In this document: positions 9,166 through 48,340 of the stretch, in pieces
Layout of the letters: the number at the start of each line of letters is the position of its first letter
Position numbering within the stretch: the stretch's first letter is position 1
NCBI GenBank assembly: GCA_008632985.1
Contig: QPGO01000011.1
Coordinates: 248,001 to 312,000, forward strand
DNA length: 64,000 bases
Direction of reading: 5' to 3'
Source of the DNA: Psammoneis japonica
Taxonomy: Eukaryota
Program-made: the position numbers and the translations under genes
Notes under the pieces: model-generated
The model's input: only the letters and a program-made list of their open reading frames with translations
The model's database searches: none
Told to the model about the DNA's origin: nothing

Positions 9166-10182
9166 TGCGGAGGTGAAATGCTATTATTTATTGTTTTGTG
9201 GGACAGCTTTGATCCACCAATGATGATCGAGGAAAAAAAGAAAAAGAATGTGAGAACAAAAGACGTGTCGATTTTGTGACGACTAGAATCCAGAATTCTC
9301 TCGAATTCGTGACTCAAAAAATTGGTCACCGGTGCAAGTCATGATGTACCGACAATGTGAACATACCAGGGCATCACTGCTCAGGGGTGCCGTTTCCTCA
9401 GAGACTTTGGCAGGTGGTCCTTCAATGTGATCTCGGCACGCACTTGGTGATCGTGATGCACGTGAAGATTCAACTGCTGGGCTGGGTGTCTCGTGGAAAT
9501 CCACAAAATGTCATCTCGGCACAAAGCACTCAATTTGGCTGGCTGTGTGAAATGTTGTTCCGCAAAACGCTGCAAGAACCTTGCAATGAATCTTGCAGGA
9601 AACTCATGGCCAAGGTGCGTGCAAAAATCATTCCGTCACGCGGCAACAGAGCAATGCTCACACAAGTTGATGAAGACAACCACGTGCACACTCAAGTCCA
9701 ATGTTCACATTTTTTAGATTGAAAAAACAACACGACATGTCTCAACCGGTGTTCTTCACAAGATCCATGTCTTCCCCAGCATCAGCAAGCGCCGCATGCA
9801 CCGCTCAGCCCACAGGCACTCCTGCACTGCCCACCACCTTGCTTTGTTTCTTGCCTTCAACCCACACAGCACAACAGCATTTGCCAGTTCCCTTGCTGCT
9901 GCTTGACATCACTCTCTCACATGCCCCAACTGCTGCTGCTCAGTTTTTCACTCTCGCCAGTGGGCTCTTCTTTGCCGGCCTCACATCTCACACCTCGCAT
10001 CTCATGCACAGCACCAGGCATTGCATTGCTGTCTGTTTGCTGTTGTGAGGATGAGCTCAGCAGCAGGTGCAATTGTTGGTGAACTTTGGGTGATGACTGG
10101 CAACAACAAATGCAGTGGCGGGGATCCTGCACATCCCAAAGTGGCCTCCCAACCTGCTGCCACCATCGTGGCCTTTGTTTTT

Positions 10183-10359
10183 TGCTGCATTTAGATTCTC
10201 TAATGTGCTGGGCACCTTTGGCACTAACAACAAGACTTCTGTTTGGTCTTGCCCAACCTGCAAAGCTCAACGATGCTGCACTTAGATTCTCCAATGCACT
10301 GGGCACCTTTGGCACTGACAACAAGACTTCCATTTGGTCTTGCCTGACCTGCAAAGCTC
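10183..10359. repeat. Two tandem copies, 91-bp period
   Basis: tgctgca.ttagattctc...gggcacctttggcact...cctgcaaagctc occurs at 10183 and 10274. Confidence 0.85.
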
Positions 10360-11569
10360 TTGGCCTTTGTTTTTTGCTTGGCTCCTTTTCTCTGCTGCCA
10401 TCGTCATCCCTGCAGGAGTCATTCAGATCCTGAGAGTCATTGCATGGAATTTGTGCAGGAGAGAGAGTGTCAACAACAATTGTTGTCAGCCAGTCTGTCC
10501 CTCCACATCTGAATGTCAACTTCAAGCACTTTCATTTGCGCACAGTGAAGGCCAGCACAGCTGGTCAGATGGCACCTCAACTTGGTCTCAGTTCCCAAAA
10601 AGTTGTTCACTCCAGCCACTGTCTTGCATGACACTGTGTGCATTTCCATGTGATTTTTGTTTTTCTTTGTGCAAAAATTCAACTTTGCTGGCTGATGCAA
10701 CAATTTTGAAATGACTCCCACTGCCTCTTGCTTTTCAATCCCATCCACCCTTCTTTGTTCACTCCTCCTTCCTCCTGCATTCTTTTCTGCACCCTTTGCA
10801 CCATGAGCCTTTTGACACATTTGCTGTCTCTCACCTCCTGCTCCCCCCTCATTTGCTGCCCCACTTCCTTTCACGACCCCTCCACACTCCCCCATGCAAT
10901 TGCCCATGCTGCAACCACAACCCCTGACCCCTTGAGTGCCATCCCTTTGCTCTTCTTCAATGCTCTCTGTCAAGCTCTGTGGACACCCATTTGCTTTTTT
11001 CTTCTCTGTTGCTGCCACACCATCACCTTCTGTGCTGGCTGCTGCTGCCTGTGTCATGCTGCTGGATTGACAGCCAGCAGTGTTTCCTCAACACGCAGTC
11101 TCTAACCTTGCACCTGCCAGCTCTCTTTGCTGATTGCTTCTTTGCCATGGATGACTTTTCTCTTCTCAACCCTGCCAACTTTTTTCTTGATGATCCTGCC
11201 AACTTTTTTCTTCATGGCCAATCCCACTGACAATGCTTCTGGCTGCTGGCAACTCTTTTAACACCTCCTCTCATTTGGTCTGCCATGCTGCTGATCCCTT
11301 TTCAAACTGCCATGTCACTGGACACCTCCCAGTTTAGTTTCTCCACTGCCTTGACAACTGATGACCTCCCACACTGTCTCTCTTCAGTGTGCCCTGTTGC
11401 CACCATGTGTTCCTGCAGCACCCTGCCCTTCAACTCTGCTCAAACTTGGCTGGTGTCCTCAAGAGACTCGCTGCCTCTCATGCCTCTGCCTCCACTGCAC
11501 CAGTCTCTCTCTGACATGGACTTGCCAGACCTTGCTTGGCATTGCATTGCTCTTCCTCCAATTGCTGCT

Positions 11570-12100
11570 TGCCCACTTTGGTGATGTTGGTGAGTTTGGC
11601 AACTTTGTCAGCTTTGTTGACTTTGGCAACTCTGGCAGCTCTGTGGCCCACCAACTTTGGTGACTTTGTCAACTTTGGCAAGCTTGGCAACTTTGATGGC
11701 TTTGGCAACTTTGTTGGCTTTGCCCACTTCAGTGACTTCAGCAAGTTTGGCAACTTTGTCAGCTTTGTCCACTTTGGTGACTTTGGTGAGATTGGTGATT
11801 TTGTCAGCTTTTGTCCACTTTGTCAACTTCGGTGGCTCTGGCAAGTTTCAACTTTGGCAACTTTGGCAGCTTGTTTAGCAACTTTGTCAACTTTTTGGTG
11901 ACTTTGTCAATTTTGGTGGCTTTGGCAACTTTGTCAGCTTTGCCCACTTTGGTGAGTTTGATGACTTTGTCAGCTTTGTTGACTTTGGCAACTTTTGTGG
12001 CTCTGGCAAGTTTGGCAACTTTTTTAACTTGGTGACTTTGGCAACTTTGTCAACTTTGGCAGCAACTTTGGTGAGTTTGGCAGCTTTGTCAACTTTGCAG
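11570..12100. repeat. Degenerate 9-bp-period minisatellite
   Basis: Iterated actttggca / actttgtca / actttggtg units over about 530 bp. Confidence 0.85.
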
Positions 12101-13164
12101 GGTTCTTAAATTACAGAGAGTGATCACGAAATTGATTGCAGTTGATCACCAGGTCCCACAAATGATGGCTGAAAAACAGGCATTTACCACACACGGTCAA
12201 TCTGATTGCACAAGTGCCATCATCACATTCATGACTGCAGTCATTTGCAATCAGAGGGTTGCTGGGCATGCACAATTGTTGTGCCAATGGGCTCCACTTT
12301 TTGTGTGGAGGGTGTCCCTGCACGCCCCTCTGATGGGGAGGCACTGTGTCAGCCATTGTGGTGTGGTTCTTGCAATTTGATTGCTGAATGAATGCTTTGC
12401 AATTGCCACAAGCCAACCACGCATTTGTGGCAATGCAGCATCTTGTTGCAAATTGATTGTGACTCCTCAAAATTCTGCAATTGAAGAAGATCCCTGTGGC
12501 TTTGTTGGCTTTGTCAACTTCTTTGGCAGCAGATGTCCCACTCATCCTCCTGTGGCTTTGCTCCCTCAAATTTTTGTGTTGTTTGAGCTCTTGGAGTTTT
12601 CATTTTGCTGTCAAGTTGTTTGCCTTTGCCAGCTCTTTAGCGTGCTTTTCTAAAACCTTCTTTCTCAGCTTGGCACATCTTTGGCTCTTTGTGCTCTTGG
12701 CATCTGTGTGGGAGGGCTGCCTCTCAAGTTGCTCTGTCCACCCAAGCCTTGTTCCTGCTCCCCACCTTCCTCCATTTTTGATTCTTCCGCTGCCACCCTG
12801 ATTTGTCCAATTTTCTTCAATCCTTTGGCCTCTCCCCACTCTCCCTCCATGCTCCCATCCTTTCCCTGCCCTCCCTGGGTCTGCCACTTCCTGCCTCTCC
12901 GTGAGCTTGGTCGTGCTGCTTGCTTCCAACCCATCATTCTTCCCTTCCTGGTGATTGCCTGCACTGTGGATCCCAAAATTTACATGCTCTCCCCAGCTCC
13001 CATCCTTTCCTTCCATGCTTGCCTCTGTGCCTGTGAAGCTCATGGCAAACCTCCCCTCCCCCTTTCACATTTCAAGTTTCTGCCTCCCTTCTCTCCTTTG
13101 ACAACTTTCTCCTGCATGTTGACAACTGCCTCAACATTGCTGTGGTTGACCCACCCTTTGCTGC

Positions 13165-13190
13165 CTCTCTCTCTCTCTCTCTCTCTCTCT
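13165..13190. repeat. (CT)13 microsatellite
   Basis: Seen directly in the sequence. Confidence 0.95.
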
Positions 13191-13523
13191 CCTGCATGAC
13201 TCCACTGCCTTCTCTTTCTGTTCCACCTGACTTCCCTTCCATTTCGGCAGCTGCTTCGATGCCTGCTTCTGCTGCCCCTCATGTCTCTCACACCTCTCAT
13301 TGGGATCTTAAAACATCTCCAAGTTATGAGCACGTCGATGGAACGCATCATGAACGCATCCAAATACTCCGGTATACCAAAAGCAAATCACCATTGCGGT
13401 GCACGAACATTTTAAGAAAAAGAGAGATCTTTTTCTGTTGATGTCTTGGACTGTGCAAACGCTCGAATCATCATTGACATCACTTTTCGTAGCATAGATA
13501 TTGCTATAGCTTTTAACTGTCAT

Positions 13524-14348: not shown

Positions 14349-14724
14349 TGTTGTTTGGGTGACGAGTGACGAGTGACGATCGAAAATTGGGGGGTGTCGC
14401 GACGGTCGACGGGCTGACTCTCACCCCACAAACTCCGGCCGGGTTTGCCAATTTCATATATTCTATCTCCATCACGTAGATAAAGATTATATTATGCTGC
14501 GATTTCTTCTGGTTCTTGCTTTCGCTTTTTGTTTTCGAGTTCAGCGATGAGACACAACGACGTGTGTTTAGTTCGCCGCTGTTGTTGTTCTAACTACTGT
14601 TCGTACCCCCATAGCTGACTTGATCTAGATACATTCCTCCATTGATTCTAGAAGCTGGAGTTGCTCTAGATACCTCTCTTGATTTAAAGTTGACTTACTG
14701 TATTCAACGCAAGAAAGAACAAAC

Positions 14725-16026
14725 ATGAACGAAGATCATCAAGAGCCCGATTTGAGCCACACCGATTCCACCATTCGCCTTGCATCCGTCGTGCATCGGT
14801 TTCGAATGCCCATGGTGTTTGACCAGTCCAGTTTTCAACGAGCCTTCAAGACGGCAGGTAAAAGCCACGGAGTCACGACGGCAGCCATGATTCGTGCCGA
14901 CAGCACGCGTAGGGATTTGATTCGGGTGCTGCAATCCAAACGTCCCAATCATGAGCAAGTCGTGACAAAAGCTCAGGATTATGTTCCGTTGATCCAACAG
15001 ATTCTCTTTACGTGCAAAGTTCAACCCGAGTCGGCACGATTGGACGAACGTTTGTTGTTTGAATGGGCTTCGGGTGTCGAAAAGGTGGTGAAGAATGATG
15101 AAGCAGACAAGTTCGAATCGGAAGCACTCATGTATGACCTTGTCATGTCCATGGCAGCTGAGGGATTGGGACAAGCTGGATGGGCCTGCGAGGACAGCGC
15201 AGAGGGGGACTTTGCCAGTGCCAATCGGAAATTTGGAGCTGCTGCTGGTCTTTTTGAATTCTTGGAGAAGGATCATTTGCCGCAATGGGTGGCACGCGGG
15301 ACGGTGGATGAAGACAACCTTCCTATGGAAGCAACCGTTGGTGGATGTGCAGGACTCAAGCTCCTATTTTTGGCGAATGCGCAGCAAATGGCAGTTGCTA
15401 CCGTGTTGATCAAGCCGGGTACTCCAAATTATTCGCTCGTGGCCAAGCTTTGTTTGGGAGTAGCTGAGAAGTTGGAAAGCTTTGTCTCCACCATGCGCAA
15501 GGACGCCTTTCATCAAATGTCGAAAATGGACAAGGAGTTCTTCACGTTGGTGACCTTTCAAGTCAATCTACAACGTTCGCTTTCGCTTTATTTTCAGGCA
15601 CGGTCCCTGTGGGACACGGATCAAAATTATGGATTGGCGATTGCGCTTTTGAGCGAAGCTACTCAATTGATTAAAACCCGTTCCACCTCTGTCGGTACGG
15701 GCATTCCCGATTTGACAAAGACTCAAAAGCTTCACACGCTACAAGAGGACCTTGTGGACTTGAGGGCGCACATGGCCAAGGTACTAAAGACTTGGGAAAA
15801 GGACAACTCTCACGTTTACTTTGACCGTGTCCCACCCAAGGTGCCAGAGTCGGACAAGCTGGAGAAGGGACTCTTCATTGCCAAGATTAAGCCTTATGAG
15901 TTCTTTGAAGACGTCGATCCCCTGCCTCTAAGCATTCCGGACGCTTCGGATACTACCCCGGCTACCTTGACTCGGAGTGATAGTGATCTTGCAAGAGAAC
16001 TGCATGAGAAGTTGAATAACTTATGA
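14725..16026 (+). CDS. BRO1-domain protein (BROX/ALIX-like)
   Basis: Intact 433-aa ORF with FEWASG, AAGLFEFL, LANAQQM and EKDNSHVYFDRVP. UIM-like tail SDSDLARELHEKLN. Confidence 0.8.
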   Translation: MNEDHQEPDLSHTDSTIRLASVVHRFRMPMVFDQSSFQRAFKTAGKSHGVTTAAMIRADSTRRDLIRVLQSKRPNHEQVVTKAQDYVPLIQQILFTCKVQPESARLDERLLFEWASGVEKVVKNDEADKFESEALMYDLVMSMAAEGLGQAGWACEDSAEGDFASANRKFGAAAGLFEFLEKDHLPQWVARGTVDEDNLPMEATVGGCAGLKLLFLANAQQMAVATVLIKPGTPNYSLVAKLCLGVAEKLESFVSTMRKDAFHQMSKMDKEFFTLVTFQVNLQRSLSLYFQARSLWDTDQNYGLAIALLSEATQLIKTRSTSVGTGIPDLTKTQKLHTLQEDLVDLRAHMAKVLKTWEKDNSHVYFDRVPPKVPESDKLEKGLFIAKIKPYEFFEDVDPLPLSIPDASDTTPATLTRSDSDLARELHEKLNNL

Positions 16027-17200
16027 ATCTGAAGCATTGATCCGGACATGCCTCGCCGTCTATATCTTCTAGTGTTTAAATCTGGTTACAATTTTACTAT
16101 TTGCGTTGTACTGTGCATTGAGATATTGTGGCAAACCGAGTCTCTCGGATATTGAGGTTCTAGGGCATGGCGTGTCGTTACAAGCAAGGGGTCAATCTTT
16201 CGCATCTATTTATGTGTTGAGTTACGTGTTTTGGGAGTGACAACACAAGGAGAATGAGGTAGGGTAAGCTGACAATGTTGAGCAGTTATGGAGCTTGTTT
16301 TGTCACTACACAATGGCACCAAGCTTCTTCTGTTTCTACTGTGTCTCTACCATGTGAAAAGCATGCATGCAACTCAATGCTAAAGGTTGTTTCATGATTT
16401 GGTTGATGCAATTCTGATGCAATGAGACGACTCGGATGAATGATGAGTGTGTGGGACTGTGGAGATTGAGAAGTCGCGCAGAGCGATGCATGCCCATTTT
16501 TGTAGAATGCTGCATCTCTCGAAAGCACATTTGAAACCTGTCATGTGCACTGCAACACCTGCAACATGGATGTCTTTTTGTTTCACTGGTTGAGGCAGCT
16601 CCAAGTCTCTCACAAAGCTCCTCGTGCGGGTGGGTGTGGTGACCCTGGTGTCTGGGGGTGCAGAGACTGTGTGTCCCTTTGAATTGGTGTGAGCATCTGG
16701 CACCACTTTGGTTGTGTGTTTTGCAAGCTGATCAGCGGCACTTGTTGCCCACTGCACAGTGCTTGCACTTGATGGTGGTGCACCCCCTGCAAGTCAAAAC
16801 AATCCATTTGACACATGCTTTGCTGTCAAACAAAAAAGCACCATGCAGACATTGAAGGATGCCAAATCTTTGAGAACTCTTGCTGCAGCTCATCTGGCAA
16901 AAACCACGACAATTGGAGCTGTGGAAAAGCCAATGCACTCCCATTTTTTTAATCACTTGGTGGGCAGAATGGTTGCCTTGCTTGAGCTGTGCTGCAAAGT
17001 TTGGTGTGGCATTTGCCAAAATGCTGCTGCATTGGAAAATGTGACAAACTCAACTGGTCATTGAACTTGCTTCCCTGCTCACTGCTGCAGTGCTCTGGCA
17101 TGCTTTTTAGAAGTTGCCATTGCCCCTCAACTGGTCAAATCATCAAGTCCAATCCAGCATTGACAAGAAGATGTGCGCAGCTTGCTCACATTGGTTTTCT
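15930..17200 (+). repeat. Copy A of a diverged direct repeat (BRO1 3' end + intergenic + CMS1)
   Basis: Aligns by eye to about 47035-48340. Shared blocks include acaaggagaatgagg.agggtaagctg and ttgaaggatgccaaatctttgagaa. Confidence 0.9.
16559..17200 (-). pseudogene. Decayed CMS1 copy
   Basis: DAHTNSKGHTVSAPPDT...FVRDLELPQPVKQKD here, against HTNSKGYTVSTLPDT...FVRDSVLPQLVKRKD in the intact gene. Frameshifts present, TpA and CpG largely lost. Confidence 0.9.
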
Positions 17201-19035
17201 CTTTTTGGCTTTCTTCCACTCATTTCAGCAGCTTGTGCTGCTGGGACTCATGATGTTGGTTTTCTCTTGAAGCTTTTTCTACTCATTTTTGCAGCTTTTT
17301 CATGCTGGAGCAGTGGGGCATCATTTCACCAGCTTGGATGCATGCTTTTTGGTTGGGCAAACAACCAACAACAGCAACAAGCAGTGTTCTGAGCAATTTG
17401 AAGAGGAGCAAGTGTTTCTGGAGCACAGCACAAAGGAACAGTTTGATGTCACCTTCAATCCACTGTGTGCAGCAAATGGTGCTTGAGAGCACCCCTCATG
17501 TTTGCCCCTGACAACCCAGACAATTGGAGCACAGCCACCATCTCAACTCTTTTGTTGACTGCAAAGCACCATGCTTTCAGAATTGTTTGTTTGGGTGCAC
17601 ACAATGCAAGCCCTCTTTTCCCTGTTCAGCACACAAAAGACAGCTCCTCTTGGTTCCTTGTCAATGGAAGAAACAACTTGTTCCCACATCCAGTCTGTGG
17701 GTCAATGGCATTGGCACACACAAGCACTTCTTGACAAGCAAGTTTTGGTCATTTTGAGAAATTTCCACCAGATTCAAACAAGTGGCTTAGCTTGGTTTGT
17801 GGTTTGAAAACAACACCTCTGTTGAGGAATGAAACACAGCAGCAAATGACAAGAAGGTCAAGAGCAAGGTGGGCATCTAGCACAGGTGCCTTCATGGCAC
17901 ACAAGTGACAGCACCATCTCATGCCTGTCTGGAGTGGCAACAAAGAGCTTCTTTGTGCCTTCCTTTGCATGTGACACCATTGCTGAATTGTGACTCACAT
18001 TTTGCTAAAAGTCTTTGTTGCTTCATGAACAGCCAACTGGCTGCTTGATTGCTCTTTTGTCTGCTGCCTCCACATCACAGCCATCACAGCCACTGCTGCC
18101 ACACCCTGTCACCCTCTTCTCAGCAGCTGGCTGAAATTTTTGAAAATGTCCCACAGTCATTTTTTTTTCTTGCAGCTTGAAAAAAACACACTTCTGTGTC
18201 TGCCTGTCAGCCATCTTGGAGCACAGAGTGTGAGTGGATTTTCCAAGCAGGTCTTTGGAAGTGAAGACAATGTTCAAGAGCAAATTGCCGCCACTGCTCA
18301 AGGGCACAAGGACACTGGAGGGCATGTGGTCAACCCCTGCATTGACTCAGTGATGCATGATTGAAAAGATGCAAGAAGTGCTCTTGGAGGTGCAGTCATG
18401 AAAAAAACTCAGGGTGGTGGTGGTGGTTGTTCCAACATCACTGCTGCCAGGCTTTGCCTCAGATGCACCACAACCATCATGCCTCAAGCAGAAGGTGTTG
18501 GGACAAGTTGGAAGACGGGAGATTCAGGAAACCCACAAATGTTGAAGAAAGATGTTGTTGCTGCTTGCATGGTGGAGGATGTGGTGACTCACAGAATGCA
18601 AAGTTGATTGTTGCCAATCCGGCCCATCTGTGTTGTTGTTCTTGCTCTTTGGGGTGAATCATTTGGTTTGTCAAGAATGTGCAATCATGTCACATTGGCA
18701 TCACCAGGTGCCTGTTGCATTTGAAGTTTGAAGTTTGCATGACTGAAATTCGCGGGCAACCCACAGCCGCAAATGCAGCCAAGGCAAGCACAACAAGAGC
18801 ACAGGAAGCCCAACAGGATTGCCATTTGGGCAATGGTGCCATTGACTTGCTGGTTCCACATTCACTCCAAAGAGTCAACAGCACAACTGTGTTGGTGCTT
18901 GAAGATGCATTGCCATCTGCAGCTGGCTGGTTGTTGAGTGCCTGCACAATGAGCAGCAAAGGAAGAAGCAGAAATGACCATCACGGCCAAGGACATGGCT
19001 GAGGCAAAGGTGACAAGAGCCACAGGTCTTCTCAA

Positions 19036-21611
19036 GTGAAGAAGAAGACCACTGCTGAGAAGCATTTTCAGCCTGAGATAAAGTTTCGCCCTTCATCACT
19101 GAACAGCAACTCTTTGATGCAACACATGAAGACATCAAGGGGAAAGATTGTGGGGTGCACGCAGAAGGAGTGCACTCAAGGCACACACCTGGTAAGGTCT
19201 CTTGAAGATGTGGAGTGCAAGGCCTTCAGTCAAGAAGAGCCAAAGCTGGGAATGATCACAATGGCAGTGCCAGGAGATGACAACACGGGCTGCCAGACAA
19301 AGCTGCTGCTGAGACAACAAAAGGAAAAGGAGCTGGAGCTCCATTTCAAGGCAAAGTTTCACAAGTGCAATGACAACAAAGTGAGACAGTTTGAGGAGAA
19401 CAAGACCACAGCTTTTGCCAAGATGGTGAGAAACTGCTGCACCAAGCAAATGAAGCAGAGAGTGCAAGCTGATCATTCTTTCTGCACAGCAATTGGGGAC
19501 AATCTGATCAAGCCATTGAGGCCAATCCAATCACTTGCTTTTTGCTCCATGAGAGGTCAACACCTGGATGTAAAACAACAAGAGATCATGAGCAATTGAA
19601 CAACTGCTTGTCAAGATTCAAGAACCAACAAGATGCCGCAAGTGAGAGTCTCAGCAAGAAGATGCTGGATGAATTTGTCAAGAACACCAAGGAGTGCAAG
19701 GATGGTGCTGCAAGAGTGTGAGGGGATGAGGCTTTTTGGCCCCTGCAAGTGCACTGCTGCACCCCTCACTGACACACATGTGAGGCCAGTCTGGCCTCAG
19801 GACAAGGCATCAAAGACTTTGAGTTTGTGGGAAAACATGGAGACAACCTTGTTCGTGATGCTGGTTGGAGTGCAGCAGCAGACAACAAAGAAAACAACAA
19901 CAATGAAAGTGACAGCAACAGCAACAGCAACAGCAAAGATGAAAACAAGTGTGATGATGACAACTGCAGGACCAAATCAGAGCTGGAAGATGAAGAACAT
20001 GCAGAAGAGCCTGACCCAGAAGGTGAGCATGAAGAAGCAGACAAAATGCTGGGGCAGGCAAAAGGTCCAGCCCCAATCAACCACACAAGGACCACAGCTG
20101 TGAAGAATCAGAAGACCATGAAGAGTCAGACAAAGATCCAGAAACAGGCAAGCCATTCACTGGGAACAGGAGTGGACAACAGAAACTGCTGCACAAGGCA
20201 GATGAGTTGCCAGGCAGGAGGAGTGACAAGAAGTGGCGCAAAATTTGGCACATCCCACAAAACATGAGGTTGTGAGAACACAGAGAAAAGAGAGTTTGAT
20301 TTGCAGGAGTGACAGACAAAGCAATGGAAAAGATGTGCAGAGAGCTCAAGCTCTGCCATTGCTTGAGAACCAATGTGAGCCCAAATCCAGAGAATGACCA
20401 ACACACAGCTGCAGGAATGGCGCTGGCACAATTTGTGTGTGAGATCAACAACTGACTCTGATTGGAAAGGGTGTTTCCTTCACCCAACAGTGCCTTCTGC
20501 ACAAAGGGCTGAAAGCAACATTTGGCCAGAGAAGATGCTGTTGAGCCTCCAAGAAAGAGGTGAGACAGCTGCACAACAGAGTGTGTTTTGCAACAATCTC
20601 AGCAGAGATGTGGTTGTGGAAAAGGGGAAGAGAGTCCTCTGCATCCAAGTCATCAAAGCAACACACAGAATGTTGATTGTGTCCTTGCCATGGCACAAGC
20701 AGTTCTGCAAAGACTTTGGAGAAGATTGGGTTTAATGGCAAATGGCACACCGTGCATTTTCATGTGGATGACCAGATGTCAAGTCACAAGAATCCCAAGG
20801 TCAATGACAAACATTTGAGCTGGCTAAAGAACATGTGTGGAAGCCATGGCAAGGTTGTTGCAACAGGAGGGAAGAAGTGTGACTGCCTTGGGATGACACT
20901 GGACTTCAGCAACAAGGGCAAGGTGAAGGTTGATGTGACTGACTGTGTTCGCCAGATGATTGAATGATTCCCAGAAAAGATCAAAAGTGCTGATGCTGCC
21001 ATGATGCCAGCAGGGGAGAACCCATTTGAAACAGGTGGCACTGGATCACCAGCCAAGAAAGCAAAGACACTTCACGCATGGGTGGCCAAAGGACTGTTTG
21101 TGTCCAAGAGAGAGGCTGCATGGATGCACACCCGACCATTGCAGCACTGTGCATGCAGGTCAAAGGACAAACTGACAAGGATGGGGAGAAAGCCAGTCCA
21201 TCATCTTGATCAATTGAACCAGACAAGAAATGAAATTGCTGCGCTGAGCACAAAGGACCTCCAAGTCATCAAGTGGTGCAGCACAGATGCATTGTTCTTT
21301 GCAGCGCATGTGGATTTCAAGAGCCACACCAGAGGAGTTGTGACCATGGGCAATGGAGCTGCACAGGCTGCGTCAAAAGTGACAGAAGCTCAACACCCAA
21401 AGAAGCACAGAAACTGAGCTGGCAGGAGTCATTGACAACATGACTGCAACGCTGTGCCTGGAAAAGTTGTTCATGAAGTGCCAAGGCCATCCAATTGACA
21501 AAAACATCCTCTGCCAGAACAACAAGAGCACCATGCCATTGGAGACTGATGGGTGCGTGAATGCAGGAATGAGATCCAGAGCACTCAACATTTGGCATTT
21601 CTTTGTCACTG
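19036..21611 (+). mobile_element. Decayed Ty1/Copia (CoDi-like) LTR retrotransposon: gag, linker, RT, RNase H; integrase mostly missing
   Basis: gag FEENKTTAFAKMVRNCCTKQMKQRV; RT VEKGKRVLCIQVIKA, FHVDDQMSSH and DCLGMTLDFS; RNase H DFKSHT, NILCQNNKST and RSRALNIWHFFVT. LTRs not identified. Confidence 0.9.
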
Positions 21612-21788
21612 GCCTTGTAAAGACCGACAAGGGGAGATGACCTCATCACCCATTGATGGCGCATCGGGAAGTCACCCCCCGCTCTGCCTCCATTGAACGC
21701 ATCTAAGTTGGCGTCTGGAAGCAAGCTGCTGTTGCTCATTCTTCCAAAGAGCTTCAGCAGCAAGCCAAATGGACAGTCTAAAAGCGCT
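21612..21788 (+). repeat. Split direct repeat A1
   Basis: Matches 26844-27022 (gcct.gtaaagaccgacaagggg...gacagtctaaaagcgct). Confidence 0.95.
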
Positions 21789-21805
21789 GTTGTGTTCGGC
21801 GGAGG

Positions 21806-24130: not shown

Positions 24131-24289
24131 GTCATCGGCAATGGCTCCTGCTCGGGGACATGGAACCAAGAGCCACTTCCCACATGGGCACACAAGCCCA
24201 TGCATCCACAACCCCTGCAAGTGGAGTCTAGGAAACGGCGCTTCAGCCCCACAACAGGTGGACAGGATGTGGCCGCATCAGTGCTGACT

Positions 24290-26215: not shown

Positions 26216-26611
26216 CATTGCGCGAAACATCTCCGCGCCTTTGGCACCACACCAGACACGCCCCTCGGTGTGTGCTTGCATGACAACACCTGGTGCCGTG
26301 TCTCTCCCGCCAACATTGCCAGCATCCTGCGCACCGCAATTCTGGCAATCGGCCCCGCTACGCTGGGTTTCACACCCGCCGATGTCTCCGCTTGCTGTTT
26401 GCGCGTGGCTGGTGCCGTGGCCCTCCCATGTGCCCATGTTGACACCGACGTGATCCGCCTCTCAGGCCGATGGTGCTCCGACAAGATGCTTCGTTGCCTC
26501 CACTTGCAAGCAGAACCTGTCATGCGCAATTTCGCAACCCGCATGTTGGCTGGCGGCCAATTTGTCCTGCACCCCAATGCCGACGTGCCCCTTGCTGCCG
26601 CCGACCCGTGA
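26215..26611 (+). pseudogene. Tyrosine recombinase C-terminal fragment
   Basis: VSACCLRVAGAVAL...IRLSGRWCSDKMLRCLH corresponds to the SLRxGGA...GRWxSD..xxY boxes. The N-terminal part is absent. Confidence 0.85.
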
Positions 26612-26709
26612 TTCCATCACAGGCCACGCCTCAGCCTTCCAGCCGGGCCCACCCACCCACCCAATTGCACCGCCACTGCCCACACCAGTGTACATGGGTG
26701 GTGCCAGAA

Positions 26710-26843
26710 TGGCCATGCCATTCCAGCTTGGGAATGGAAAGGGACCAACTGCACTGGCAAAGTCCTCCCATCCCTGCCAATTGCCTGTCTCTAGAATCAG
26801 ATCACCGCAAGAAGTCGTGCGAGCAAAGCGACGCCAGTCGCTG
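26710..26843 (+). repeat. Split direct repeat B1
   Basis: 134 bp, matches 27041-27174. Confidence 0.95.
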
Positions 26844-27022
26844 GCCTCGTAAAGACCGACAAGGGGAGACATGACCTCATTGCCCATTGATGACGCACCG
26901 GGAAGTCACCCCCCGCTCTGCCTCCATTGAACGCGTCCAAGTTGGCGTCTGGAAGCAAGCTGCTGTTGCTCATTCTTCCGAAGAGCTTTGGCAGCAAGCC
27001 GAACAGACAGTCTAAAAGCGCT
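26844..27022 (+). repeat. Split direct repeat A2
   Basis: Matches 21612-21788. Confidence 0.95.
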
Positions 27023-27040
27023 CCCACCTCTCCCTCCCTC

Positions 27041-27174
27041 TGGCCACACTGTTCCAGCTTGGGAATGGAAAGGGATCAACTACGCCAGTAAAGTCCTCCC
27101 ATCCCTGCTAATTACCTGTCTCTAGAATCAGATCACCGCAAGAAGTCGTACGAGCAAAGCGACGCCAGTCGCTG
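27041..27174 (+). repeat. Split direct repeat B2
   Basis: Matches 26710-26843 but retains its TpA sites. Confidence 0.95.
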
Positions 27175-27220
27175 ATCAGCAAATTGAGAAGGGCAACCTT
27201 GGAGTGCAGCTGCCCGACTG
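27175..27220 (+). mobile_element. Continuation of the interrupted Copia RNase H, then truncated
   Basis: (g)at cag caa att gag aag ggc aac ctt gga gtg...tgc ccg act = DQQIEKGNLGV..CPT, which continues FFVT from 21610. Confidence 0.85.
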
Positions 27221-28450: not shown

Positions 28451-28569
28451 ATCGATGGAAGCCTCACGTTTCGATGGGAATGAAAAGAAAGTTCATTCAT
28501 CTTTTAACTAATATCTAAACCACGAGTCTCACTGAGGGCGGACGAGTGCTCTCAAAGCGCGTTTGATAA

Positions 28570-39882: not shown

Positions 39883-40850
39883 TTGCTTTCAAAGTGCCCT
39901 CTCTCGCTCTCGTTTACTGCCTGCCAATTCACCAACACTGCGGCTTTCACCTCCTCTCTTGTTCTCTCTTACTTGCGTAGAAGCATTTTTATCAAAAAGA
40001 GAAGACGCGAAACAAACTCTGTTGCCGATGTGCCGACGGCCCAAAACCAACACCGAATTGATGAGCCTGTTTGCCGGTTGTCGTCAGCAGGCAAATGGGG
40101 CCCTAAGTACCCGGATGGGGTGAACTGACATTTTTCAGCAAAGGCACTGCGGCACTCAAGGAAAGGAACAATGTGTGAAGCAAAGTGTGACGAGCAGACA
40201 CAAGGAGTTTGTGCAGAAGCATTGTGTCCAGCCACAGTGCTGATGGCTGCAGGAGTGAGCAGAGAAAAAGAAGAAGCGACAGCAGGTGGAGGGAATCACA
40301 TGACGAACCAGGAGCCCAAAAAGAGAGAGTTGTGAGGCTGTTTTGCGGGTGCCAAAAGCAAGCAATTGAGGTGCTCTGAAGCACAACCCAGCAAAAGCTT
40401 GTTGTCGCCCCAGCTGGTCAGCCAAGAATCCCCATGTGTTGTCCATGACAAAGCATCGCCCCAGCCATCACAAAGTGTTTTCAGCACCCATTTTGGTGTG
40501 TCTCGTGACCTGGTTGTTGTTGAGAGTTGCCTCACAAAAAACTGGTTCAGTGCTTGTTGCAAAATCTCCAAGCACGTGAAAGCATTGGAGCTTGCTGAAG
40601 ATGTCTCTGCTGCTGCTGTGAGCTGCTTCTGTCAAATGAGAGCACAAAAGCATGTGCTCCAGAACCTCTCTGCAGAGCCAGAAACTCATCTTTGCTGCTT
40701 TGGTGCAGAGCTCCCAGCTCAGTGCTCTACAGAGACACTGAGATCAACAAGAGCAGCACAAGCAGCAGAAAGTGGCTGTGCATGTTAGAACAGCAAGCAG
40801 CCAGAGCAACAAGAATGAGGTGCAGAAATGACCTCCAGCGTGCACCAGCA

Positions 40851-41115
40851 GGCCTGTTCCAGCTCCAGGTGCTCTGCTTTTCACCACGCGAGAGGCCAAT
40901 TTTCTGCGCAGTTCAGCGCAATTAACTCCTTCAATTTTGATCGTTTCGAAAATCGAAAGGTGAGTGTGCACCCAAAAATGCATGCTGTAAAGTGTACACT
41001 CACCCTTCGATTTGGCAAAAAAAACAGATTTGGAAAAAGTCAATTGCGCCAAATGCACAAATTTCCAAATGATGGGAATCAAACCCGCGCGGAGCACCTG
41101 GAGCTGGAACAGGCC
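40851..41115. mobile_element. 265-bp MITE with 24-bp perfect TIRs and a candidate 4-bp TSD (AGCA)
   Basis: ggcctgttccagctccaggtgctc (40851-40874) is the reverse complement of 41092-41115. agca lies on both flanks. Confidence 0.85.
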
Positions 41116-44100
41116 AGCATGAGGTGGGCAGCAGCAGAAGCAGGTTGAGAAAATGAAAACTTGCATGAGGGGGCATGGGCAAAGTTGAGAAGCCATGCAG
41201 AGCAAAGCAAACCAAGAACTTTGTGTGCAGCCTTGGTCAGGTGGCACAGCTCAAGAGTGCACACTGTCATGCAAAGTCACGGCTGCTTGCAGTGTGCCAA
41301 GCAGCAGCCACATGCTGGCCAGCTCCCAGCTGCAACAAGAGCTTGGCTTCTTGCATCACCAACTCAGGACACTGTGTGGCAAAGTTGAAAAGTAAAATGC
41401 TTTGACAAATGTGTGCAGCATGGCAACAGGAGGGGGAAAGTGGGTGAGACAAGCTTGTTCTGAGAGACAACGGGGGGAGGGGCACAGCTGCCACACTGCA
41501 AAAGAAGAAAAGACCAAAGAGAAACAGGAAAGAAGCAACAGCCACTGACAACAGCACTTCTTTCTGCCTGAAATCCCTTCAAATTTTCTGTGCTCAATGC
41601 CCTCATTGCTTGTGCTAGACTGGTGACATTTTTAAAGCTGTGTTTGACTGACTTGGTTAAAATGACAGAGGAGCAATGTGTGATGACTCTAAAAATTGCA
41701 CCATTGAGTGTGCAACAAATTTGCCTTGATGTGCTGCATGAGCTGGTGATGCCTTTCCTGTTGTGTGCTGCACAAAATTTACATCACATGCATGAGTTTC
41801 AATCACTTGAAAGATGACCTTCCATGTGTCAGCAAAGCCATTGCATGCAGGAGTGTCCCACGCTGTTTGACAACTTGCCAAACATTTTGCTTTGATCTTT
41901 GCATCTTTTCAAATGCTGGTGGGGTGCTGTGCATGCAGCCAAAATGCTGGCAATGCTGCAATCATGCTGTGATGTCATTGCATTTGCCATGTCATGTGTG
42001 AATCTCGACATCAATGACATGAAAGCAAAAATCACATGACAATGTTGAGCTTGGCATTGCACTGTGCTGCACACCAGCAGGGTGGTCAATTCATTTCATT
42101 GATCCACAGGTTGTCAATTGCATTTGCACCCAATTTGAGCTGACTCATGACAAATGAGGCCCTGGGTCCTCCCCACAGAAGAAAATGCATTTTTGCACCA
42201 GTTTGGTGTTTGCTTTGCTGCAAGTCAAGACTCCTGCAAGGTCTCATGTTGCCATGGTCTCTTGCTCATCATGTTGCAAGAAAGCAGGCACATTTTCCGC
42301 AGCACAAGAATGTCAAAGCACAACAACCTCAAGTGATGGCACACACTCAAGTGCCAGCACACCAGCAGCACATCAACAAAGGCAAGCATGCAAATTTGCT
42401 CATTGACACAAATCAGTCAGATTTGTCACAAATTGCCCCTGCTCATGACAAATCATTGTGATTTGAAAGCAAACAAATGTCCGCTCTTTCCAACAAACAT
42501 GGGAATGAGTTTGGTGCAACTCAACAAGTTTGCAGCCAAGAAATGCTCAATTTGGTGTTTTTGCAGCTAACTGACTGAGAGCAGATTGGTTGACTGGCAT
42601 TTTCAAATGATTGTTTTGCTGCACAGAGCTGCAGCTCATTTTCAATCTGTTGTGCATCCAAAGTCTGCCAGTTCCTTGTTTTTTTTGTGATGTGTTTGCC
42701 TGCATTTGCTGCAATGCTGCATTTGTTGTGGCACTGAAAGCTTGCCTCTCTTTGTCATGATGTTTCATGAGACCTGAAAATGGCAGCCTTTCCTTTGTCT
42801 GCATTCTTGGATGTTCAATTGGATTCAAAAAAGCACCCTCAAGCAGGTTTCAAAAACACTCGGTTGTCAATGACTGGGGATGTGTGCATGACAGAAATGC
42901 AAAAATGTCCTTCATCTGGCAACCTTGCACCTTCTTTTTTTGCAATGCTGCAAGCCTTGTGGTTTTGGAACCACTGTCCCATGCTCACAAAATTGACAAT
43001 TTTCACTCAATCAGAATGCTGACCAGCCAATGAATTTCCATTGACTCTTGTCAGCACAGCTTGCCCCCCATCACCATTGTTGCTGCAAGCCCAGCACAAT
43101 CCAGCGTGTTGACATGACATGGGTTCTCTGATTTTTTGCCTGGCAACATTGTGGATGAATGTGAAGTGCCTTTCCTCATGCTGATGTCAATGAAGGAGCA
43201 CCCAATGAACTCAATGAGAACAACAGCTGTGGCAACTCTCATCTGGAAAATGACAACAACAAAGCCTCCTTCTCAGAATGGCGAATGCACACACCATCAT
43301 TTTTTGCTTCTCAGCCTTTTCCACAACTTTGCATGGATCAGCAGCATCATTGCCACCTGCAAAGTGAGATGCCAGCAAAAAGCTCAACACTCCCTGCACT
43401 GCACTGTGGTTGTCAGAAAAGCCAGCCCTTTTTTCATCACCAGCAAAGTTTTCACAGTTTCCAAAAATGAGGCATGAGGCTTTTGCTCTGTGCTGCTGTT
43501 TTGCACCAAGACATGGAAATTTCAAGGATCAGAAGAGCACCATCATCCACCAGGTGGGTTGGCTCCAGCAGAAAGCTCCTCTTCATTGTTGGCGCTGGTG
43601 CACTCAGAAACACCTGCTTCAATGAGGTCCGAAGCTTTGTCTCTTGCAGGCTGCAGCCATGAAAGTGGGATTTTCAGACACATTGTCAAAACAACAGAAA
43701 AGCACCACATGTGGCTGCAGGAAATTTCTCACTCTGTGTCAACATTTGTCCACCAAACCAAAGAGAGCAAAAGTTGATGCAACAAACCAAGTGCTGGTGG
43801 GACATCAGGTCTGAGATTGAGGACCCAGATCAGTTGAAGAAAAAACATTTGACACATTTAACTGACCTCCTGATGCACAGCTGTGACTCATGATGAGAAA
43901 AGATGCATCATCAGCACTCTCTGTCATGAGTGCATTTTTTGTTCTCACTCTTTGGAGTGAGTCATTTGGTTCACACAATTGCCAGTCAGTGTCAAGAGAC
44001 ACCTGTTGTTGCATCAGCCACACAGTTTACATGGATGCACCAAGGCAAGCCACAGCCATTGAAGACTGCCAAGGCAAGTGTGTTGAGCAGCGCAGGAAAT

Positions 44101-44721
44101 TTTGTGTGGTTCCCTTTTGGTGACATTGACTTGCCAGTTCAATGCCAAGGGTCATTTGTGAGTGCCTCACTCTTTGCATTGCCCTGGCAACTGAACATGT
44201 GAGCATGCAACATGAAAGCATCAAATGCAACAATTTCAATGAAATCTTCAAAATGCACACCTGAGCACAAGTTGAGGTTGCAACAATCAAATGGAGATGT
44301 TCAGATTTGAACAAATTGACTCTGGAGACATGACTTTTGTTGCACTTGAGTCAAAACATGCAAAACACAAAACTGTTTGGTTGTGGAGCAACAGTCACAT
44401 GCACACCAAACAAAAATGGGAGCAAATGAACAGAAAAGGTCAACTGCCAACAAGCAAGCATGCACCACTTCAATCAGAGATGGGCCAGCAAAATGAATCT
44501 GAGAGTGTGATCACCAGATCAAAGTGCCAAATGATGGCCTCCTGTGATTCATGCACCCTTTCTTGCCACTCTGACAATCTCACTTCCCTCACTCAGCAGC
44601 ACGCTGCCATGCTGCAAGATGCAAAACCACCTCTGATGCTGGCACAAGCTTGTCACAAATTGCAGAGACATGAGAAGGTCAGTTTTCCATCATTGCTCTT
44701 TTCTCAGTTTCATGTTTTATT

Positions 44722-44912
44722 TTTTTGCTCCCGGCCCAGTTGATTTGATCTTGTCTTTTTTCTCCCCAACTTCTTGTGTCAGCAGCAGCCAGCTGTGTCT
44801 GGCGCCAAACATCCACACCACATTTTTTGCTCCCAGTTGATTTGATCTTGTCTTTTTTCTCCCCAACTTCTTGTGCCAGCAGCAGCCAGCTGTGTCTGGC
44901 CAAACATCCACC
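44722..44912. repeat. Two tandem copies of a ~95-100 bp unit
   Basis: cccagttgatttgatcttgtcttttttctccccaacttcttgtg.cagcagcagccagctgtgtctggc occurs twice. Confidence 0.9.
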
Positions 44913-47034
44913 AACCACAGAGCCCAAAGTGCAAACTAGAACATCTGCTGCATGCAAATGAAGACAGTGTGCTGTGCTGCAAAGAAAAATTGCAGAGTTG
45001 GCAGCTGTTAAAAAAAAACTGCAAATTGCACTGCTTGGATGAAGTGCCATTTTTTGACCAGTGCAAGCAGCGCAGAAATGATTTTTGCCATTGGCCTTCA
45101 CACCACCAAATGACAACTCACAATGAGATGAGCACACTGTGAGCAATGGCATCATTCTCATGGGAAGCATCAGCCAAAGCAACAACGGTGCAAGATGATC
45201 CATCCACAAGGCACATTTGTCATTTTTTGAGCAGTTTTCATCATTCATTTTGCACCACTTGGTGTGTGAACCAGAGTCCCAAAGCTCCAGTTCATGATGC
45301 CAACAACTCTGCTGCATTGTCACTGCAGCCACACAGCTGCATTGCTGATGCACAACACTTTCCACAGAAAAGGAGTGCACTCAACATTCACTGTTTTTGG
45401 TGCTCATTCTTTTTGATTTTTTGTGGGGGCATTGAGAAAAGATTGTTGAATTAGATTTGGCTCAGCTGCTGCCATCTGCATCATTTTTTGTCATTGTCAT
45501 TGTCAACATTGACAGCTGGCAACTGCAGCAACAAAATGGGAGGCTTTGTTTTTGCACAAACCCAAAAGACTTGCACTTGGTGCTTGAGCACAGTGCAAGT
45601 CTGCTTGAGTCTTTGAAGAAAAACTGTTTTTCCCTCTGACATGAGAGGCTCTGACAACTTTGTCAAGCACAAATGGTGCCCTTGGTTGTTGCTCAAGCTC
45701 TTTTGCAGAATGATTGGGACAGATGACGCATGCTGGGGCCAGGTTGTGTGCAGGCAGTGTGTCCCAGGGTGGCTCCAGAAATTGCCAAAAAAGCTGTCTG
45801 CAAGGTGCACTCTACAAAACATGCCAGAAGCCAGCACCCCACACCATCAGACAGCTGTTGTCAAGCTTGTCACAGAAGTGCCCCACCATGACAACATTGG
45901 GGTGGAAAGAGCCAGCAGCTGCTTGGCTTTACCCAATTTTGTCCCAAAATGAACCAGTGCAAAATCCCACCTTTTTGGCTGGTGCTGATGTGAGTCATTG
46001 ACTGCTGTTGTGTGCTTGGCACTGCTGCACCTTTCAAACAATGATGCAGAAACACATGCACCTTGTGGTTGTCACCTTGCAGTGCCATTGTGTCCCTTGC
46101 ACCTGAGCCACAGCTTTGGCATTTGCCACTGAGTGCCTTTTTGTTCTTTGCATGAAATGTGTTCAAACAGACTGGGCACTTTCTCATTGTGATGCAGGTT
46201 TTCAGCCTGCATGTGTGATGTGTGTTGCCATGCTGTTTGTTGGCCTCCCCACATGAAAAGTGGCTGGGCTGCAGCCCTGAGATTCAGGGCAAGCACAGTC
46301 ACATTTGGCAAAGCAACAATGCTTTTGGTGTTTTTGTTGTAGATTTTTCACACAGCTGTGCTGTTTTCTTGCTGCTTGGGGTGGACCAAGTGTGCTGGAG
46401 TTGCCTTGTCAGAGCTGCTGCATGTGTTTGAAGGGTGAGACAACTCAAGCATCTTGCTTTCACTTGACTTCTGGCTCTCACCCAAGTGACTGCACTTCAC
46501 ACAGGACTCAGTGAAAAACCACAATTTTGCCTGACATTTGTCAAAAAATGCAAGAAAGTCAAACTGCGCTGGCAAACCCCTTTCACACTTGCCAACATGA
46601 GTTCTTGTTCAGTTGGTTCAGTTGGTGGCTGTGGCTCACAAATGTGCCTTTGACAACAATGGCATGACTTGTGCCATTGTGTGCATTGTGATTCAGCATT
46701 GTGAATGCAACCCTGACAATTTGGGTGTCAAAGTGGGCTGCTCCTGCTCATCTCCCCTTTCACTGGACATCTTCTGCAAGTGCCAAGCTGTGCTCAAGTC
46801 CAGCCACTTTGGTTTTTTCTGAGAGTGACCTGCCTTGATTGTTGCTGTGCATGACAGGTCCATGTTCTGAAAATTGTTTCATTTTGGCCCAATGCAGTCC
46901 ACTTGGTGTTTGCACACATCAAGTCCAACCTGCATCAAAAGGTTGGGCACTGGGATCTCCGAGGGGAGATTGCAGGGTTGCTCATGGCTCTCACACATGA
47001 TTTGTTGACCCACGCCCCACCCAATGAGGTGCCT

Positions 47035-47129
47035 TCACCCCAGACACTTTGGACACTGCTTCAGCAGCCTTGACTTGGAGTGACAGTGATCTTGCACAGG
47101 AGTCACACAAGAAATTGAGTGATTTGCGA
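47035..47129 (+). pseudogene. Decayed 3' end of the BRO1 gene
   Basis: ccttgacttggagtgacagtgatcttgca here, against ccttgactcggagtgatagtgatcttgca at 15965. Confidence 0.85.
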
Positions 47130-48340
47130 CTCTGAAACATTGGTCCGGTCGTCATGTCTTGCTGCCCTCTGTTTTTCCACTGTTCAAATCTGCTCAAAGC
47201 CACGTTGGTTGCATTGGACTGAGCAGCTTGGCTGAGCTGTGAGATGTTGGGCAAATCTAGTCTCTCAGATGTTGAGCTGTGGGGCATGACTGTCTTTACA
47301 AGAAAGGGGGCAGTCTTTTGCACATGTCCATGTGCTGGAGGCACTGGTTTTGGTTGTGACAAGGAGAATGAGGCAGGGTAAGCTGGCAACATTGAGCAGT
47401 TACAGAGATTGTTCTGTAGCTGCACAGTGTTGCCAAGCTTCTTTTGCTTCTACACCATCTCTATCATGTAACAACCGTGCATGCAACTCAATCCTAAAGG
47501 ACGGCTCCTGACTTGGTTGTGACAATTCTGATGCAACGAGACGACTCGATGAATGACAAGCACGGGACGACAATGATCGAGAAATCGGGAAAATAGAGCA
47601 ATGCATGCCCATTTTTTTTGTAGATTACCAAATCTAGTAAGCATGTTACTATCCTATCATCTGCACTGCAATACCTAAATCATGGCAATCTTGGTATCTT
47701 TTCGTTTCACCAGTTGCGGAAGGACAGAGTCTCTCACAAAGCTCATGCAGGCGGGTGCGGTATCCGGAAGGGTAGAGACTGTGTATCCTTTTGAATTGGT
47801 GTGGCATCTAGCACCACCAATTGTGTGTGTTCCAAGCTGAGCGCCGGTACTTGTCCACTGCACAATGCTTGTAATCGATGTGGCGTACCCACGGCGAGTC
47901 CAAATGATCCGTCGCGTAGCATAGTCTGTTGTTGCTGTATTGACATGTGTTTGGCAAACAACTTTGCAGCGCGACCTTGAAGGATGCCAAATCTTTGAGA
48001 ATTGCCACGGCTCGTCTTGGCAGAAACCGTGACAATGAGAACCATGGGCGAGCCAACATGCTTCCACTTTTTCAATCTCTTGGTGGACGGAACGATCGCC
48101 TTGAACTGTGTTGCAAAGTCAGGCGTAATATTGTTTGTCGAGGCTGCTGTTGTTGCATCGGAAAAGTGCGATAGACTCAACTGGTCAATCAAATTTTGTT
48201 TGTCTGTTTCATTGCTTCCCTGTTGCAATTTATTGTAGTGCTCGAGCGAGGTTTTCAGAAATTGGTGTTGCACCTCGATTGGCTGATTCATCAAGTCGCG
48301 TCCGGCATTGACGAGAAAATGCGCACGATTCGTAGTTGGT
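47035..48340 (+). repeat. Copy B of the diverged direct repeat
   Basis: Aligns to about 15930-17200. Confidence 0.9.

Follow-up and report, generated by a model that had tools for sequence, protein, structure and literature searches.

Introduction

Hypermutation of TpA to TpG or CpA has been described for integrated viral DNA in the chlorarachniophyte Bigelowiella natans (Mettrop et al., bioRxiv 10.64898/2026.01.13.699255, dated 2026-04-14), which is the closest known counterpart to the pattern analyzed here: blocks almost free of TpA in a 64-kb stretch of the genome of the diatom Psammoneis japonica (contig QPGO01000011.1, positions 248,001 to 312,000; hereafter the window, numbered from its first nucleotide). 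According to the accessible part of the preprint, 231 of 302 new mutations in B. natans mutation-accumulation lines fell in two integrated viral regions; 230 of these 231 were A>G or T>C, all of them at TpA, and in culture the rate per site and generation was approximately 1e-7 to 1e-6. The same text reports 124 clusters of TpA-poor windows rich in CpA and TpG, finds the TpA-poor predicted genes enriched in reverse-transcriptase and DDE domains, and proposes an ADAT2-like adenine deaminase as the agent; diatoms and CpG go unmentioned in it.

Fungal repeat-induced point mutation (RIP) likewise ruins repeated or foreign DNA by transition hypermutation and leaves a dinucleotide footprint, but it turns CpA into TpA and makes DNA AT-rich, whereas in the window TpA is destroyed, to observed-to-expected (O/E) ratios of 0.03–0.15, and GC content is kept or raised. 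A preliminary description of this DNA had called the process the reverse of RIP, and in this respect it was right. Deamination editing with a neighbor-base preference, as practiced by APOBEC (on retroelements), ADAR (on dsRNA), and ADAT2/3 and TadA (on tRNA A34), is another comparable activity. To our knowledge, no natural adenine deaminase has been established as a genome defence acting on chromosomal DNA.

In full-text literature searches, neither hypermutation directed at TpA nor repeats free of TA turned up for diatoms. Mutation accumulation in Phaeodactylum gave a GC-to-AT-biased spectrum with CG, CC and TG as the mutable contexts and, in the accessible part of the article, nothing similar (PMC6604790); the accessible parts of PMC2806351 and PMC4504042, and a term search of the available text of 10.1101/2025.10.24.684338, likewise yielded nothing on TpA hypermutation.

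The window shares with B. natans, as far as the available preprint text allows the comparison, the A:T>G:C transitions at TpA that give TpG or CpA, the restriction to discrete silent or foreign regions with the rest of the genome (here, the adjoining DNA of one window) normal, and the footprint of low TpA with high CpA and TpG, which is enriched in transposon-type sequences there; an ADAT2-like deaminase is proposed in both. The two cases differ in host (a stramenopile here, a rhizarian there), in the kind of evidence (a footprint here, new mutations there), and in depth, since a TpA O/E of 0.03–0.15 is far below the 0.45 given for the nucleocytoplasmic large DNA virus region of B. natans. They also differ in targets, which here are repeats and host-gene fragments, not recognizable viral inserts, and in the co-occurring loss of CpG, where the preprint text reports no G:C>A:T component. 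Because of that preprint, at least in the part accessible, the earlier claim of an undescribed mutator no longer holds; as far as our searches reach, the diatom case, the depth of erasure, the behavior at boundaries and a flank rule that goes unmentioned in the preprint text are new. We consider it very probable that a real, in-place mutational process, specific for TpA and limited to discrete domains, acted on this DNA.

Results and discussion

Blocks of the window are nearly devoid of TpA

We profiled TA, CG, TG and CA across the 64-kb window as O/E ratios in sliding 1-kb windows. At approximately 9.2–13.3, 16.4–27.0 and 40.1–47.4 kb the TA ratio fell to 0.01–0.15 and the TG and CA ratios rose to 1.6–2.0, compared with a TA ratio of about 0.5 and a CG ratio of about 0.95 outside. 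The TA-free blocks noted earlier are thus real, and a hand count for positions 19201–19560 (0 TA, 1 CG) proved exact; the depletion claimed for 16.3–27.2 kb also stands, although not as a single block, because 16.4–21.6 kb has lost both TA and CG and 21.6–27.0 kb is a TA-poor element that largely keeps its CG. The depleted regions are as follows.

9200..13308, no strand: depleted block 1, flanked by an Rce1-like gene (its 5' end) and a PMSR-like gene (its 3' end)
9200..9800, no strand: left edge of block 1, with 4 TA (9284, 9347, 9364, 9715) against about 30 CG positions
16382..21604, no strand: depleted block 2a, TA and CG both lost
about 21.6–27.0 kb: depleted block 2b, the GC-rich element (58% GC), TA lost and CG largely kept
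40109..47378, no strand: depleted block 3, between the 5' end of a non-ribosomal peptide synthetase (NRPS) gene and the 3' end of CMS1

Counts were taken in 9370–13300 for block 1, 16400–21600 for block 2a and 40110–47370 for block 3, and expected counts were computed at the O/E of the remaining 41.2 kb outside the blocks. Observed against expected TA was 16 vs 127 (block 1), 12 vs 190 (2a), 34 vs 128 (2b) and 23 vs 281 (3), with Poisson P values for the deficit from 6e-23 to 8e-89; the corresponding TA O/E values were 0.07, 0.03, 0.15 and 0.05, compared with 0.54 outside. For CG we observed 41 vs 218, 34 vs 279, 348 vs 428 and 48 vs 375 (O/E 0.16, 0.11, 0.77 and 0.12; 0.95 outside), and the CA and TG ratios lay between 1.56 and 1.93 within the blocks and at 1.17–1.18 outside. 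GC content across the blocks ranged from 0.44 to 0.61.

The edges of the blocks are sharp. TA density flips within 100–200 bp at 9189/9284, 13309, 16381, 27013–27081, 40108 and 47379, and every switch sits near the end of an open reading frame (ORF): TA is dense up to 9189 and again from 13309 around block 1, and the last dense TA before block 3 is at 40108, with TA back at 47379. TA O/E at codon position 3-1 was 0.35–0.65 in the 13 ORFs examined, block-adjoining and distant alike, and 5.2 kb of ordinary inter-ORF DNA had a TA O/E of 0.63 and a CG O/E of 1.09. Because silent positions and ordinary spacers are normal, a bias that acts throughout the genome and is countered by selection in genes can be ruled out. 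Within this window, TpA loss is restricted to discrete regions and the adjoining DNA is normal; the 1-kb windows, the silent codon positions and the spacers all bear out the earlier claim that depletion is confined to silent domains beside normal genes, the silent state itself being presumed.

The preliminary description had placed the process in transposable elements and dead gene copies. One element and two host-gene fragments could indeed be identified, as described below, but none of the 193 block ORFs of at least 70 aa carried a mobile-element domain in Pfam, and approximately 16 kb of the depleted DNA, judged by these 193 ORFs, matches no recognizable source. The targets named here, one repeat element and two dead fragments of host genes, may be only in part the foreign or mobile DNA that the accessible text describes for B. 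natans. Recoding the blocks as purine/pyrimidine revealed no hidden homology among them. Two local features of the blocks were seen in passing: some 54 degenerate copies of a 9-bp unit arrayed at 11595–12097 in block 1 (62% matches), and, near the left edge of block 3, 144 bp at 40911–41054 that match their own reverse complement at 89% in purine/pyrimidine coding and may be a decayed palindrome.

A host-gene duplication gives the direction of change

Polarity could be read from a direct duplication of approximately 1.4 kb that comprises the last BRO1 codons, a spacer and most of CMS1.

14683..16026, + strand: intact BRO1-domain gene (Pfam PF03097, E 7.6e-27), polarity reference
47743..48687, - strand: intact CMS1 gene (Pfam PF14617, E 1.9e-13), polarity reference
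15937..17176, + strand: duplication copy A, BRO1 tail and downstream DNA untouched to about 16380, hypermutated beyond
47040..48324, + strand: duplication copy B, hypermutated to about 47378, untouched beyond (CMS1 gene)
16625..17314, - strand: dead CMS1 copy (tblastn against intact CMS1: residues 78–314, 32% identity, E 2.6e-17), with in-frame stops
47004..47126, + strand: hypermutated copy of the last 37 BRO1 codons (tblastn residues 411–447, 54% over 41 columns, E 3e-7), with an in-frame stop

In each copy the half that belongs to a working gene is untouched and the other half is depleted. The two copies are 68.6% identical over 1330 columns, and 84.4% identical in purine/pyrimidine coding. 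With the untouched half of each copy as a proxy for the ancestor, 55 TA became 19 TG and 18 CA in the affected copy, with 7 kept and 11 otherwise changed; 56 CG became 21 TG and 18 CA, with 4 kept and 13 otherwise changed. Transitions affected 38 of 106 A/T positions inside TpA and 67 of 535 elsewhere (odds ratio 3.9, p=7e-8), the latter background including the ordinary divergence of both copies. These counts (37/55 TA and 39/56 CG converted) agree with the direction that had been proposed from four CMS1 examples, TA>TG/CA and CG>TG/CA, and all four are visible in the alignment of 15937–17176 with 47040–48324; the equal TG and CA outcomes likewise uphold the strand symmetry claimed. Because the CMS1 and BRO1 copies are host-derived DNA, the changes were not carried in by a mobile element or its RNA.

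The duplication, at 15937–17314 and 47004–48460, brackets approximately 30 kb (17.3–47.0 kb) that holds repeat blocks together with bacterial-type genes of normal composition, namely an LGT-like gene, two hexapeptide transferases and the multi-module NRPS. The bracketed DNA looks like a large insertion or rearrangement between convergent genes that were once adjacent. The closest named relatives of the BRO1 product, at 50–58% identity, are from raphid pennate diatoms (Fragilariopsis, Nitzschia, Mayamaea, Pseudo-nitzschia and Seminavis), which points to a pennate diatom lacking a near named relative in that search.

Repeat twins and the protein frame of the GC-rich element

An independent comparison is offered by the element that forms block 2b.

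21605..27174, + strand: GC-rich repeat element (58% GC) with split direct repeats A1, B1, A2 and B2; no Pfam domain
21605–21788, + strand: repeat A1
26710–26843, + strand: repeat B1
26837–27022, + strand: repeat A2
27041–27174, + strand: repeat B2, untouched counterpart of B1; lies immediately beyond the depleted domain, upstream of the LGT-like gene
21782..24445, + strand: element protein frame (protein of about 700 aa), broken by one TGA at 23159–23161

The repeat pairs of the element are 91.4% and 90.3% identical. B2 holds 6 TA and B1, its twin approximately 200 bp away, holds 1; the 5 extra TAs of B2 are all altered in B1, to TG (3) or CA (2). Across three repeat pairs, with 13, 10 and 6 difference events, every single change is a transition, and recoding as purine/pyrimidine raised pair identity from 91.4, 90.3 and 89.5% to 98.4, 100 and 100%. 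Each of the three pairs also contains 3 adjacent doubles of CA against TG, as expected where a single TA or CG has gone one way in one copy and the other way in its twin. Three doubles of this kind also occur among the 33 best-supported events in which the window differs from similar contigs of a public sequencing run. Judging from these sequences, the changes were very probably made in place, after insertion or duplication. Whereas RIP is driven by homology and mutates both copies, here one copy alone was affected, B1 and not B2, as in each duplication half.

The element frame is 50% identical to one homologue (P0001) found in a word-indexed search, and a profile search of the full library placed it in a family of 1929 representative clusters at E<=0.001, for which no Pfam family was found in 10 members and no solved relative in the profile search. 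The window copy has 1 Tyr in 888 residues (0.1%), along with 42 His and 29 Cys, compared with 0.36–4.14% Tyr (median 2.6%) among 143 relatives of at least 300 aa. Six columns have a Tyr conserved in 7 relatives; in the window copy these hold Cys (4), His (1) or Phe (1) and never Tyr, and the copy keeps the conserved His (10/10), Cys (5/5) and Trp (7/7) columns; 8 of its 10 changed Arg columns are now Cys, His or Gln, the CpG signature. The poverty in TA is thus not intrinsic to the element family.

Tyr is also scarce in some relatives. P0123, from another source and 51% identical to the window frame, has 0.4% Tyr, and of the 6 Tyr-rich columns within its reach 4 hold Cys or His; P0134 and P0200 are likewise below 1%. 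These three may be hypermutated copies in other genomes, and P0123 gives one isolated hint of the process at work elsewhere. A metagenome scan with P0001 gave one weak and uninformative locus (38% over 53 residues) with a normal TA O/E of 0.75.

As regards the family itself, the listed members include P0001 and P0122–P0272, and near the C-terminus it has invariant C688, C697, C701 and H707 and a nearly invariant H692 (P0122 numbering). The A1 ... B1 A2 B2 layout resembles what we take to be the split direct repeats of PAT/Ngaro-type tyrosine-recombinase retroelements, although no reverse-transcriptase or recombinase domain was detected; a resemblance to tyrosine recombinases seen by eye near 26.3–26.5 kb found no support from Pfam or PDB sequences.

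TpA loss and CpG loss are separable

CpG loss accompanies TA loss in three of the four blocks, and the preliminary description had attributed both to one process. That part of the claim is not supported here. The element keeps a CG O/E of 0.77 over 5.4 kb in which the TA O/E is 0.15, and at the left edges of blocks 1 and 3 (9.2–9.8 and 40.1–40.6 kb) TA is gone over 500–600 bp where CpG is dense or thins only gradually, as it does over 40.1–40.6 kb. TpA and CpG losses are separable. We read the loss of CpG as a second process, because only TA is lost in the element and at the block edges and because the B. natans process, in the text accessible, is without a G:C component.

This second process is probably the ordinary deamination of methylated CpG in diatom repeats, superimposed on an independent TpA process. 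It shares with methyl-CpG decay in diatom transposable elements the CG>TG/CA changes in repeat DNA beside CpG-normal genes, including the 39 of 56 converted sites of the duplication, and mosaic CpG methylation of diatom elements is mentioned in the accessible part of PMC6604790. Such decay covers the CpG half of the pattern only, given that TA loss reaches DNA that keeps its CpG; the earlier argument that CpG decay alone is insufficient was correct.

Sequence context of the target and candidate agents

The few surviving TAs have distinctive flanks. YTAR accounts for 32 of 51 survivors and for 219 of 1434 TAs outside (p=8e-14), and RTAY for 1 of 51 compared with 453 of 1434 outside; survivors in the element show the same trend (YTAR 12/34, p=0.004), the element being younger and at an earlier stage. 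This suggests one rule that fits both strands, in which a good target is an A after T and before a pyrimidine (T-A-Y). In the duplication, YTAY gave TG 8 times and CA 3 times, and RTAR gave TG 4 times and CA 8 times; the direction agrees with the rule, and the difference is not significant (p=0.10). A 3' pyrimidine preference of this kind would set the agent apart from ADARs, which prefer a 3' G.

Surviving CpGs, counted over 10000–13200, 16650–21500 and 40700–47300, show the opposite flank pattern, with RCGY at 31 of 80 and at 533 of 2379 outside (p=0.002). Survival of RCGY would fit weak A>G at C-A-Y.

The sequence shows the following process. TpA is converted to TpG or CpA, by an A:T to G:C transition at a self-complementary step on either strand, and the action is limited to putatively inert intergenic stretches, in which lie repeat elements, one dead copy of a gene and the copied tail of another. 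It halts within 100–200 bp of active genes and runs almost to the exhaustion of TA, and a separable second process strips CpG from most of the same DNA. The TpA process may be the one measured in the B. natans mutation-accumulation lines. It appears to be aimed by position and not by homology, because the twins B1 and B2 and the duplication halves have opposite fates, and targeting would run through chromatin state or small RNAs; a link to heterochromatin is presumptive. The likeliest agent would be an ADAT2/TadA-like deaminase that requires a 5' T and prefers a 3' pyrimidine, making hypoxanthine from A, which is copied as G. In tRNA, A34 always follows U33, and a preference for 5' U or T is thus native to TadA and ADAT. 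As a whole, an in-place TpA process with separate CpG loss, together with the agent and targeting proposed here, is probably the best explanation of the pattern; the identification of the agent as a DNA adenine deaminase is tentative and, taken by itself, falls somewhat short of an even bet. No deaminase or oxygenase domain was found by Pfam among the 23 largest ORFs of the window.

Several points weigh against this explanation. The T-A-Y preference is based mainly on survivors, its direct test being the non-significant one above, and at a palindromic TpA an A>G change looks like T>C on the other strand. Polarity presumes that the functional copy lies near the ancestor, and for blocks 1, 2a and 3 only the 1.4-kb duplication gives an untouched reference. 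Among the 33 best-supported events in which the window differs from similar contigs of a public sequencing run (X1), TA is restored in none and CG in 8, so that TA loss in the 16–22 kb repeat family may predate the divergence of its copies. The run itself may be the assembly's own sample. Finally, the scope is one 64-kb window.

The strongest competitor to a deaminase is an enzyme, of the TET/JBP oxygenase type or another, that modifies thymine at TpA, for example to 5-hydroxymethyluracil, whose mispairing with G would give T>C. TpA is to thymine exactly what CpG is to cytosine, a purine preceded by a 5-methylpyrimidine, symmetric between strands, and dinoflagellate 5-hydroxymethyluracil favors TpA. 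Because TG and CA outcomes are equal (19 vs 18), the modified base, A or T, is indistinguishable, and the survivor rule can also be read as an R-T-A target. Mispairing of 5-hydroxymethyluracil with G is only modestly mutagenic, though, and TA loss does not track CpG loss, so that nothing points to a common reader of methylated pyrimidines; a literature search combining 5-hydroxymethyluracil with diatoms and transposable elements gave only a review of dinoflagellate genomics. We regard thymine modification as unlikely.

Error-prone repair fares worse. In this scheme T:G mismatches at methyl-CpG recruit mismatch repair and polymerase eta, which then introduces A>G at nearby WA sites; polymerase eta errors favor TA within WA, and the losses of TA and CG do coincide in three of four blocks. 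The same errors would be expected at ApA, and there we found AA O/E values of 1.07–1.46 in the blocks against 1.14 outside, and polarized A>G at 27 of 177 ApA sites against 40 of 358 in other non-TpA contexts (p=0.21). ApA is thus neither depleted nor above background; polymerase eta is disfavored because ApA is unaffected, and the check proposed earlier, TA alone for a specific editor or TA plus AA for polymerase eta, favors a TA-specific agent. The 5.4-kb element and two block edges have moreover lost TA with CpG kept, and the B. natans process lacks a G:C component in the preprint text available. We place the probability of this route very low.

Equally improbable overall is the view that the DNA was TA-poor before insertion, through the intrinsic composition of the elements or through ADAR-like editing of retroelement RNA fixed by reverse transcription. 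It draws on the lack of recognizable coding domains in the blocks and on the near copies of the 16–22 kb repeats in run X1, which restore TA in 0 of 33 events. We aligned 367 X1 contigs to 15500–22500, of which 174 are only 90–95% alike, implying similar sequences elsewhere in that run; untouched copies may alternatively fall under the 90% likeness cut-off. The CMS1 copy and the BRO1 tail, host DNA with no past as a retroelement, are equally affected; within a single element, twin repeats have TA in one and TG or CA in the other; relatives of the element protein have a normal Tyr content; and the survivors include TAG, which does not fit the preference of ADARs for a 3' G. A pre-insertion origin is thus contradicted for the duplication and the GC-rich element, and could contribute only to blocks 1, 2a and 3.

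An artefact of assembly, polishing or sequencing is hardly credible, even though the sole supporting run may be the source sample, given that public-run contigs match the depleted DNA with 0–2 differences per piece and that the pattern follows gene boundaries, repeat twins and codon logic (Tyr to His or Cys), unlike any known artefact. The matching pieces are Logan contigs of run X1, which agree with 15939–17081, 17052–17429 and 19445–19720 with 2, 0 and 0 differences, respectively; because X1 may be the assembly's own sample, the match does not amount to independent confirmation. Contigs of a second run (X2) cover only 15.5–16.1 kb, and those of a third (X3) match nothing.

Implications of an in-place TpA process

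Relative to the accessible text of the B. natans preprint, the window adds the end state of the process (TA O/E 0.03), sharp edges at gene ends with opposite fates of twin sequences, and the rule by which T-A-Y is lost and Y-T-A-R is kept. Should the footprint in the diatom and the process in Bigelowiella prove identical, the defence would be present in at least two major marine phytoplankton lineages and would not be one alga's oddity; for one of these lineages there are model species that can be transformed, so that knock-outs could lead to the enzyme. An editor of DNA adenine that occurs in nature and acts at a defined motif would be biochemically new and relevant to base editing. Annotation would be affected as well, because the one frame that can be traced has His or Cys codons in place of Tyr codons, and long false ORFs appear because TAA and TAG stops are rare.

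In a broader and more doubtful form of this proposal, which we consider possible at best, diatoms and chlorarachniophytes would share a dedicated editor of chromosomal DNA that is guided by chromatin or small RNAs, prefers T-A-pyrimidine and erases TpA wherever active transcription gives no protection. Such an editor would be a counterpart of RIP with the opposite chemistry, would predate the split between stramenopiles and rhizarians, and would leave most old mobile DNA unrecognizable to protein-domain searches.

Other features of the window

The window is gene-dense and eukaryotic, with long, intronless ORFs. Pfam assignments for the 23 largest ORFs comprise Sin3, an Rce1-like protease, PMSR, BRO1, LGT, hexapeptide transferases, a multi-module NRPS, CMS1 and a NOP2-like methyltransferase; Rfam and tRNA scans of the window gave no match. 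Two ORFs, at 53841–58721 (+ strand, 1626 aa) and 51939–53585 (- strand, 548 aa), are without any Pfam family.

The NRPS gene contains duplicated modules (31993–32697 vs 35396–36091, and 30913–31684 vs 34329–35097). These internal repeats had appeared transition-rich after purine/pyrimidine recoding; they proved ordinary, with 28 and 71 transitions against 34 and 52 transversions and TA kept. Within the otherwise diverged module repeats lies a core of approximately 450 bp that is almost identical, which suggests gene conversion between modules.

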